Positions 13,227-13,415 of a DNA stretch of 64,000 nucleotides are shown here, in pieces (the stretch's first letter is position 1; each line of letters opens with the position of its first letter). Position numbers and translations under genes: made by a program. The notes under the pieces were generated by a model, which saw nothing but the letters and a program-made list of their open reading frames with translations, searched no databases and was not told the DNA's origin. Source of the DNA: Sphyrna mokarran (taxonomy: Eukaryota); the NCBI GenBank assembly GCA_024679065.1, contig JAGIQG010000004.1:14136001-14200000 (forward strand), in the 5' to 3' direction.

Positions 13227-13415
13227 ATTGAACAGGTGAAAACGAAGCAGATTTTGCAAGCCGTGCTACAGTCCAGGAACTATGACAACAATATCCATCT
13301 TCAAATTTCCAATGAAACAGCCGAGGACAAATTGTCTGGGATTCTTCACGAACTTTGCATGAATGGCTATGGTTACCCAAGACCTGCCTTCACTGAAAAC
13401 CAACAAATAAGCTGA
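13227..13415 (+). CDS. IRF8: IRF8-like terminal coding exon, TGA stop at 13413-13415
   Basis: Acceptor ctccacag|. Translates IEQVKTKQILQAVLQSRNYDNNIHLQISNETAEDKLSGILHELCMNGYGYPRPAFTENQQIS*. The end resembles the IRF8 C-terminus FRENQQITV. Confidence 0.92.
   Translation: MEQVKTKQILQAVLQSRNYDNNIHLQISNETAEDKLSGILHELCMNGYGYPRPAFTENQQIS

Follow-up and report, generated by a model that had tools for sequence, protein, structure and literature searches.

A pLxIS motif in the C-terminal tail of shark IRF8: a possible IRF5-type phospho-latch shared by most fish IRF8s

The IRF8 gene in a 64,000-nucleotide stretch of Sphyrna mokarran DNA (this whole stretch is called the window below) encodes a tail with the sequence HLQIS, the serine of which may be a retained phospho-latch of the type found in IRF5, a tentative explanation that falls just short of probable. 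What is new here is a conserved putative variant of a known switch that seems to have gone unremarked, and that is general to fish IRF8 and not unique to this shark. In the proposed mechanism, a kinase would phosphorylate the LQIS serine of the IRF8 tail, after which this strand would dock into the conserved arginine pocket of another IRF molecule. Such a latch would be simpler than that of IRF5, because the tail of this shark has none of the upstream serines of IRF5 and the IRF-association domain (IAD) has no second arginine patch.

Identity of the gene

The window protein had been described as IRF8-like, and this is borne out by exon identities and by a tree of the IAD. Nine coding segments were found, all matched in order by a database shark IRF8 (tblastn). 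The first three, which are the two exons of the DNA-binding domain and a linker exon, are located shortly before the start of the window. The segments that matter here are the following.

6263..6368, + strand: IRF8 linker exon of 106 nt
8388..8441, + strand: short IRF8 linker exon
8565..8951, + strand: main IAD exon (PF10401)
12946..13064, + strand: penultimate coding exon, end of the IAD, from splice signals and tblastn
13227..13415, + strand: last coding exon of IRF8, 62 aa plus stop, with an AG acceptor; 59/62 residues as in Mustelus and Heterodontus IRF8

The exons at 8565-8951, 12946-13064 and 13227-13415 splice in frame with canonical GT/AG sites, the junctions being placed by their splice signals and by the identical junctions of annotated shark orthologues. 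The IRF DNA-binding domain and the IAD (PF00605 and PF10401) are both present in one gene, which looks intact. Mustelus IRF8 is the closest relative, with identities of 122/128, 37/39 and 59/62 over the main IAD, penultimate and last exons, and 63 of the 128 residues of the main IAD exon are identical in human IRF8. This exon gave 24 matches, of which 21 are named IRF8 or generic IRF, the remaining three being one hypothetical protein, one protein named after a fused DUSP22 and one unnamed record. In an IAD-only tree of 44 rows, from which the motif tail was excluded, the window protein groups with the chondrichthyan IRF8s (support 100/98; IRF8 clade 96/81), and the separate IRF3-, IRF4-, IRF5-, IRF6- and IRF7-like genes of this genome fall into their own groups. 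The tree has a midpoint root only and five long branches of unsure position, and the paralogue labels of unnamed rows were assigned by us from this tree and from best-match identities. By these sequence comparisons the window protein is IRF8.

Some IRF8 database records (the cluster of P0007, P0010 and P0030) are fused or clustered with DUSP22, which suggests that a neighbouring gene was merged by annotation. The introns within window positions 1-16000 contain many near-repeated interspersed segments (e.g. 2700-3000, 6650-6860, 9690-10030 and 12160-12460); judged from recurring translated words, these are probably SINE-like repeats.

The motif and the segment that follows it

Positions 13296-13313 (+) translate to HLQISN, in frame within exon 13227-13415, and the exact pLxIS match noted in the preliminary description is confirmed, with H as residue p.

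13296..13310, + strand: pLxIS motif HLQIS, serine codon 13308-13310; homologous position IRF5 Ser436 (variant 4), which is Ser462 (variant 5)
13320..13361, + strand: predicted helix after the motif, counterpart of IRF5 'helix 5'; low confidence, from the model of P0135 (helix 410-423)

A bare pLxIS match alone is weak evidence. The window contains 30 strict matches among 127,996 six-frame positions, about 0.01 being expected per 62-aa exon, and another strict match, QLDIS, occurs in the DNA-binding domain of 141/141 IRF8s. It is position and conservation that raise the motif above chance.

For modelling, P0135 served as a close stand-in for the window protein (last exon 59/62 identical). Its AlphaFold2 model, built from a 30-row alignment, has a mean pLDDT of 64; the IAD is confident, the motif loop 400-406 is below 50, and the helix at 410-423 lies in a block with a pLDDT of about 59. 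Of the amphipathic helix that had been proposed to follow the motif, the helix itself is predicted at low confidence, but its amphipathicity is not significant, as 854 of 5000 shuffles equal its hydrophobic moment. An Asp at +6 (13326-13328), inside the predicted helix, pairs with IRF5 Asp442 and is retained even in tetrapods.

Relation to IRF5 and to the paralogues

When the IAD and tail of P0135 were used in HMMER, the IRF5 chain of PDB 3DSH was the best PDB sequence match (E 1.3e-37). This alignment crosses the tail and motif unforced, and those to IRF4 and IRF9 end before the tail. The shark I-x-L-Q-I-S-N pairs with I431, L433, I435 and S436 of IRF5, and Asp+6 with D442. Since the 3DSH chain is numbered 222-467 (PMC3297630) and the S430D mimic stands at the expected spot, the shark serine corresponds to IRF5 S436 (variant 4), i.e. 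S462 (variant 5). Searches with the last exon alone were empty: against the PDB it did not match 3DSH and found only an unrelated chain at E 1.4, and BLASTP against the last exon of the IRF5-like gene of this genome gave no alignment. The tail similarity is therefore weak unless the IAD serves as anchor.

The last exons of the IRF5-, IRF6- and IRF7-like genes of this genome have LQIS at the same place, and the IRF3-like gene has LQLS. In comparisons of the shark last exon with these paralogues, the score was reached by 39 (IRF5), 17 (IRF6) and 117 (IRF7) of 3000 shuffles, as against 1420/3000 for IRF4; the result for IRF3 (243/3000) is not clear. The human IRF8 tail is above shuffles with IRF4 only (66/3000), the numbers for IRF5, IRF6 and IRF7 being 2542, 2048 and 1276 of 3000.

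Structural comparisons were made with the P0135 model. In Foldseek, IRF4 (5BVI) and IRF5 (3DSH) came out on top, 3DSH over 224 columns as compared to about 185 for the others. In VIA-align, 3DSH (model residues 205-428, Z 22.2, rmsd 5.6, 219 aligned) ties with 5BVI (Z 22.1, rmsd 2.3, 174 aligned, ending at 394), and only 3DSH of this tied pair spans the tail. In 7JFL, IRF3 residue 396 is the structural counterpart of model residue 407. The modelled tail pose is of low confidence and may be an echo of the known IRF5 structure.

Distribution of the motif in IRF8

Of 196 proteins (P0001-P0195 and P0346), 141 were counted, each species being represented by a single record; the sample comprises the 120 best among 1890 hits together with cluster members, and percomorphs are almost absent from it. 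Extra isoforms, duplicate species, unnamed Logan records and DUSP22-only members were left out, as were records whose end is truncated or alternative (Sphenodon, Prionailurus, Sus, one Erinaceus, one Coregonus and one Stegostoma isoform). Three records without the motif segment (Denticeps X2, Engraulis X2 and one unnamed) were also excluded; they count against conservation if they are main forms.

Within this sample of best hits and cluster members, a hydrophobic-x-hydrophobic-Ser in register was present in 57/66 IRF8s of cartilaginous fish, ray-fins, coelacanth, lungfish and monotremes, and in 0/75 of amphibians, reptiles, birds and therians. By group, the in-register motif and, in brackets, the number of strict pLxIS matches are as follows.

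Chondrichthyans: 19/20 (strict 13)
Non-teleost ray-fins: 6/7 (strict 4)
Teleosts: 28/35 (strict 20)
Coelacanth and lungfish: 2/2 (strict 1)
Monotremes: 2/2 (strict 0; MLQIS)
Amphibians: 0/23 (strict 0)
Sauropsids: 0/20 (strict 0)
Therians: 0/32 (strict 0)

The preliminary description had named absence from other sharks and rays as a ground for doubt, and in 19 of the 20 chondrichthyans the motif is in register. A shark-specific novelty is rejected, as most bony fishes, the coelacanth, lungfish and monotremes keep the motif too. Between sharks and bony fishes the serine column is constant while positions -5, -2 and +1 vary, as would be expected of selection on the serine.

Several records depart from this pattern. 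Pristiophorus IRF8 (P0001), the sole exception among the 20 chondrichthyans, has a one-residue insertion in the motif (LQKIS), which could be genuine or stem from faulty assembly or annotation. In salmonid and mudminnow IRF8 (P0181, P0188, P0191, P0185, P0118), the register is likewise shifted by one residue inserted ahead of the serine, and in spotted gar and a pipefish the motif serine is replaced by Cys. Three records of clupeiform type (P0086, P0112 and P0078: Denticeps and Engraulis, both isoform X2, and one unnamed) are without about 25 residues that include the motif and most of the helix, perhaps through a lineage deletion or an alternative splice acceptor.

In all 32 therian records the serine is replaced by Pro or Leu, in human by Pro, and the earlier statement that human IRF8 reads SVMQAP at this place was correct (P0159). 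Turtles and birds have the same segment with Ala in place of the serine. Echidna and platypus IRF8 (P0039, P0151) keep LQIS and form a natural comparison pair with the therians. Given the Ala of turtles and birds and the Pro of humans, the monotreme motif looks like retention, which would imply at least three losses in tetrapods; the motif was thus probably lost more than once in this group. Tetrapod IRF8 that has no serine still has the hydrophobic residue at -3, Asp+6 and the downstream helix pattern.

The motif outside IRF8

The same alignment column holds the motif in records named lamprey IRF8-like (EFEIS, SFQLS) and lamprey IRF6-like, and in Patella (PLQIS), Liolophura (SLHIS), Gigantopelta (PLQVS) and Acanthaster (LLQIS). 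In the IAD-only tree, both lamprey IRF8-like rows fall with the IRF4/8/9/10 group (support 100/98). Since the 40 rows of this cross-family alignment were hand-picked (25 of them from 150 listed representatives), it shows presence of the motif outside IRF8, not its frequency. The occurrence in lamprey and mollusc IRFs points to an ancestral IRF feature that was eroded in most tetrapods, and on the sequences compared the motif is very probably ancestral. The idea that it is ancestral and marks the IRF4/8 clade thus holds in its first part but not in its second, as the IRF4 of this genome is without the motif. A feature of the whole clade is rejected, since the IRF9-like rows and one of the two IRF10-like rows are likewise without it.

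Three proteins, P0196 (Heterodontus 'IRF8-like X4'), P0197 and P0198, form a group sister to IRF8 (87/96) with an eroded motif and the downstream helix pattern kept; this group is probably IRF9. Among the at least six IAD loci found in this genome, there was no gene of the P0196 type.

The receiving surface

Two positions of the main IAD exon bear on the receiving surface.

8834..8836, + strand: pocket arginine, aligns with IRF5 Arg328/354; invariant in 141/141 IRF8s (the sample counted above)
8597..8599, + strand: Gly at the position of IRF5 Arg247 (inferred equivalent of IRF3 Arg211); basic patch missing

Two further basic pocket positions are R or K in all 141 IRF8s, human included. The basic pocket that the preliminary description had proposed to look for is thus present, but it does not discriminate, the arginine being found in 141/141 IRF8s; because human IRF8 shares the pocket residues, the test is uninformative. 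The 75 IRF8s that have no motif keep the arginine just as strictly, and its conservation therefore has another cause. Presence of the pocket as proof of function is rejected for the same reason.

None of the 141 IRF8s has Arg at the R211-equivalent, where Gly, Ser or Val stands instead, and the R213-equivalent is hydrophobic in 20/20 chondrichthyans, this shark having Gly and Val at R211 and R213; the IRF3 equivalences were inferred from the Y-R-G-R/K pattern. In the potential partners IRF3, IRF5 and IRF7 of this genome, both arginine patches are present, as Y-R-G-K and as the pocket R. In IRF3, five basic patches are reported to be required (PMC10350828). Upstream of the motif serine, 10/20 chondrichthyans have one Ser at -12.

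Known IRF switches and the role of the serine

The IRF family is usually split into the kinase-activated IRF3, IRF5, IRF6 and IRF7 and the expression- or partner-controlled IRF4, IRF8 and IRF9, and IKKb is the kinase of IRF5 S462. The phosphoserine at Ser436/462 of IRF5 is reported to stabilise the dimer (PDB 3DSH; PMC3297630); S462A lowers reporter activity by about 70%, and S462 is within hydrogen-bond distance of R354 (PMC3297630). The upstream serines S425, S427 and S430 are described as releasing autoinhibition (PMC11983564). The preliminary description took pLxIS to be the phospho-switch of IRF3 as well, which the literature contradicts: the IRF3 dimer is driven by phospho-S386 together with R211, whereas the S396A mutation changes little or nothing (PMC7672473, PMC10350828). 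As the pLxIS serine of IRF3 is not the switch, IRF5 is the right model.

The IRF5-type latch, our preferred reading, is weakened by the absent R211 patch, by N, D and N at the positions of the upstream serines, and by the broken motif in some fish lineages. If it were extended to its full consequence, IRF8 of cartilaginous and bony fish and of platypus and echidna would be activated by signals through a single tail serine, dimerising like IRF5, the expression-controlled IRF8 of human, mouse, birds and frogs would be derived by at least three separate losses, and phospho-activation would be the ancestral mode of every IRF with an IAD, as far back as molluscs and echinoderms. We consider this wider scenario possible but somewhat doubtful.

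It is also conceivable, although we hold it to be rather doubtful, that the segment is an ancestral structural element, in which the L-x-I strand and the helix pack on the IAD, the serine is structural or a minor, dispensable phosphosite like IRF3 S396 (PMC7672473), and fish IRF8 is regulated as in mammals, by expression and partners. The survival of the hydrophobic -3 residue, Asp+6 and the helix pattern in tetrapods that have lost the serine would fit this, as would the missing R211 patch and upstream serine cluster and the fact that the motif was lost repeatedly, in tetrapods as well as in some teleosts. In carp, IRF8 mRNA is induced, and plain overexpression of IRF8 is reported to raise IFN and ISG expression (PMC11881467), which agrees with control by expression. 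Against a structural role, the serine is kept from sharks to ray-fins, lobe-fins and monotremes although the residues around it vary, and since the predicted helix begins four residues past the serine, the latter is not obviously a helix cap.

That the tail works in trans is unlikely. The phosphorylated tail would then bind to the basic face of IRF3, IRF5 or IRF7, as STING, MAVS and TRIF do, and yield heterodimers or competition with adaptors instead of IRF8 homodimers. By definition, pLxIS is an IRF3-docking motif (PMC7672473), and the partners encoded in this genome keep both arginine patches, of which IRF8 has only one. Fish IRF8 is moreover reported to dampen NF-kB signalling linked to MyD88 and RLR (PMC11881467; PMC8927078), but these effects were attributed to degradation of MyD88 or STING and not to the tail. 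Finally, an accidental match of five residues or a wrongly read exon, as the 30 strict matches of the six-frame window and the one in every IRF8 DNA-binding domain might suggest, is highly improbable and effectively refuted by the open frame with canonical splice sites, by the same tail in annotated orthologues of 20 chondrichthyan species, and by the alignment column shared with IRF3, IRF5, IRF6 and IRF7.

Implications

No report of the motif in fish IRF8 was found in the literature searched, in which subscription journals were thinly represented and alignments in supplements or figures could show it. The available parts of PMC6543449, 10.1101/2022.12.18.520954, PMC11983564, PMC13670022, PMC5789952 and PMC8927078 do not mention it, and the words 'phosphoryl' and 'serine' are absent from the available text of PMC11881467 on carp IRF8. 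In its accessible part, the study 10.1101/2024.02.19.581058 covers the IRF5 segment only and treats nuclear, unswitched IRFs as the older state; the distribution described here suggests, in contrast, an ancestral activation motif that disappeared from therian IRF8.

If the serine is functional, studies of IRF8 in zebrafish and farmed fish miss a regulatory input that is absent in mammals, and monotreme versus therian IRF8 would be a near-natural experiment. If not, the finding is an evolutionary footnote.

Comparison with known systems

Mammalian IRF8 is the orthologue of shark IRF8 and has the same ending pattern and pocket residues, but therians have Pro or Leu at the serine, and the reported regulatory phosphosite is S151, which is independent of TBK1; TBK1 is described as not being the kinase of mammalian IRF8 (PMC9381507). 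The mammalian proteins, which are without the motif, are reported to be mainly nuclear (10.1101/2024.02.19.581058).

The activation segment of IRF5 and IRF6 (3DSH) has the same spacing from the IAD end, the same I-x-L-Q-I-S-N core, Asp+6 and the pocket arginine; the helix that follows is predicted in shark IRF8 at low confidence. It differs in that this shark has N, D and N in place of the IRF5 serines S425, S427 and S430, and in that Arg247 is missing from shark IRF8. With IRF3 and IRF7, shark IRF8 shares LxIS in one alignment column, but it is without the paired serines of the G-A-S-S stretch (S385/S386), which are present in the IRF3-like and IRF7-like genes of this genome, and without the R211 patch. 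The adaptors STING, MAVS and TRIF carry the same five-residue consensus, in which p is hydrophilic (definition in PMC7672473). In these adaptors, however, pLxIS is part of a membrane-bound scaffold, whereas the shark motif belongs to the tail of a transcription factor and would be inherited from an IRF ancestor.
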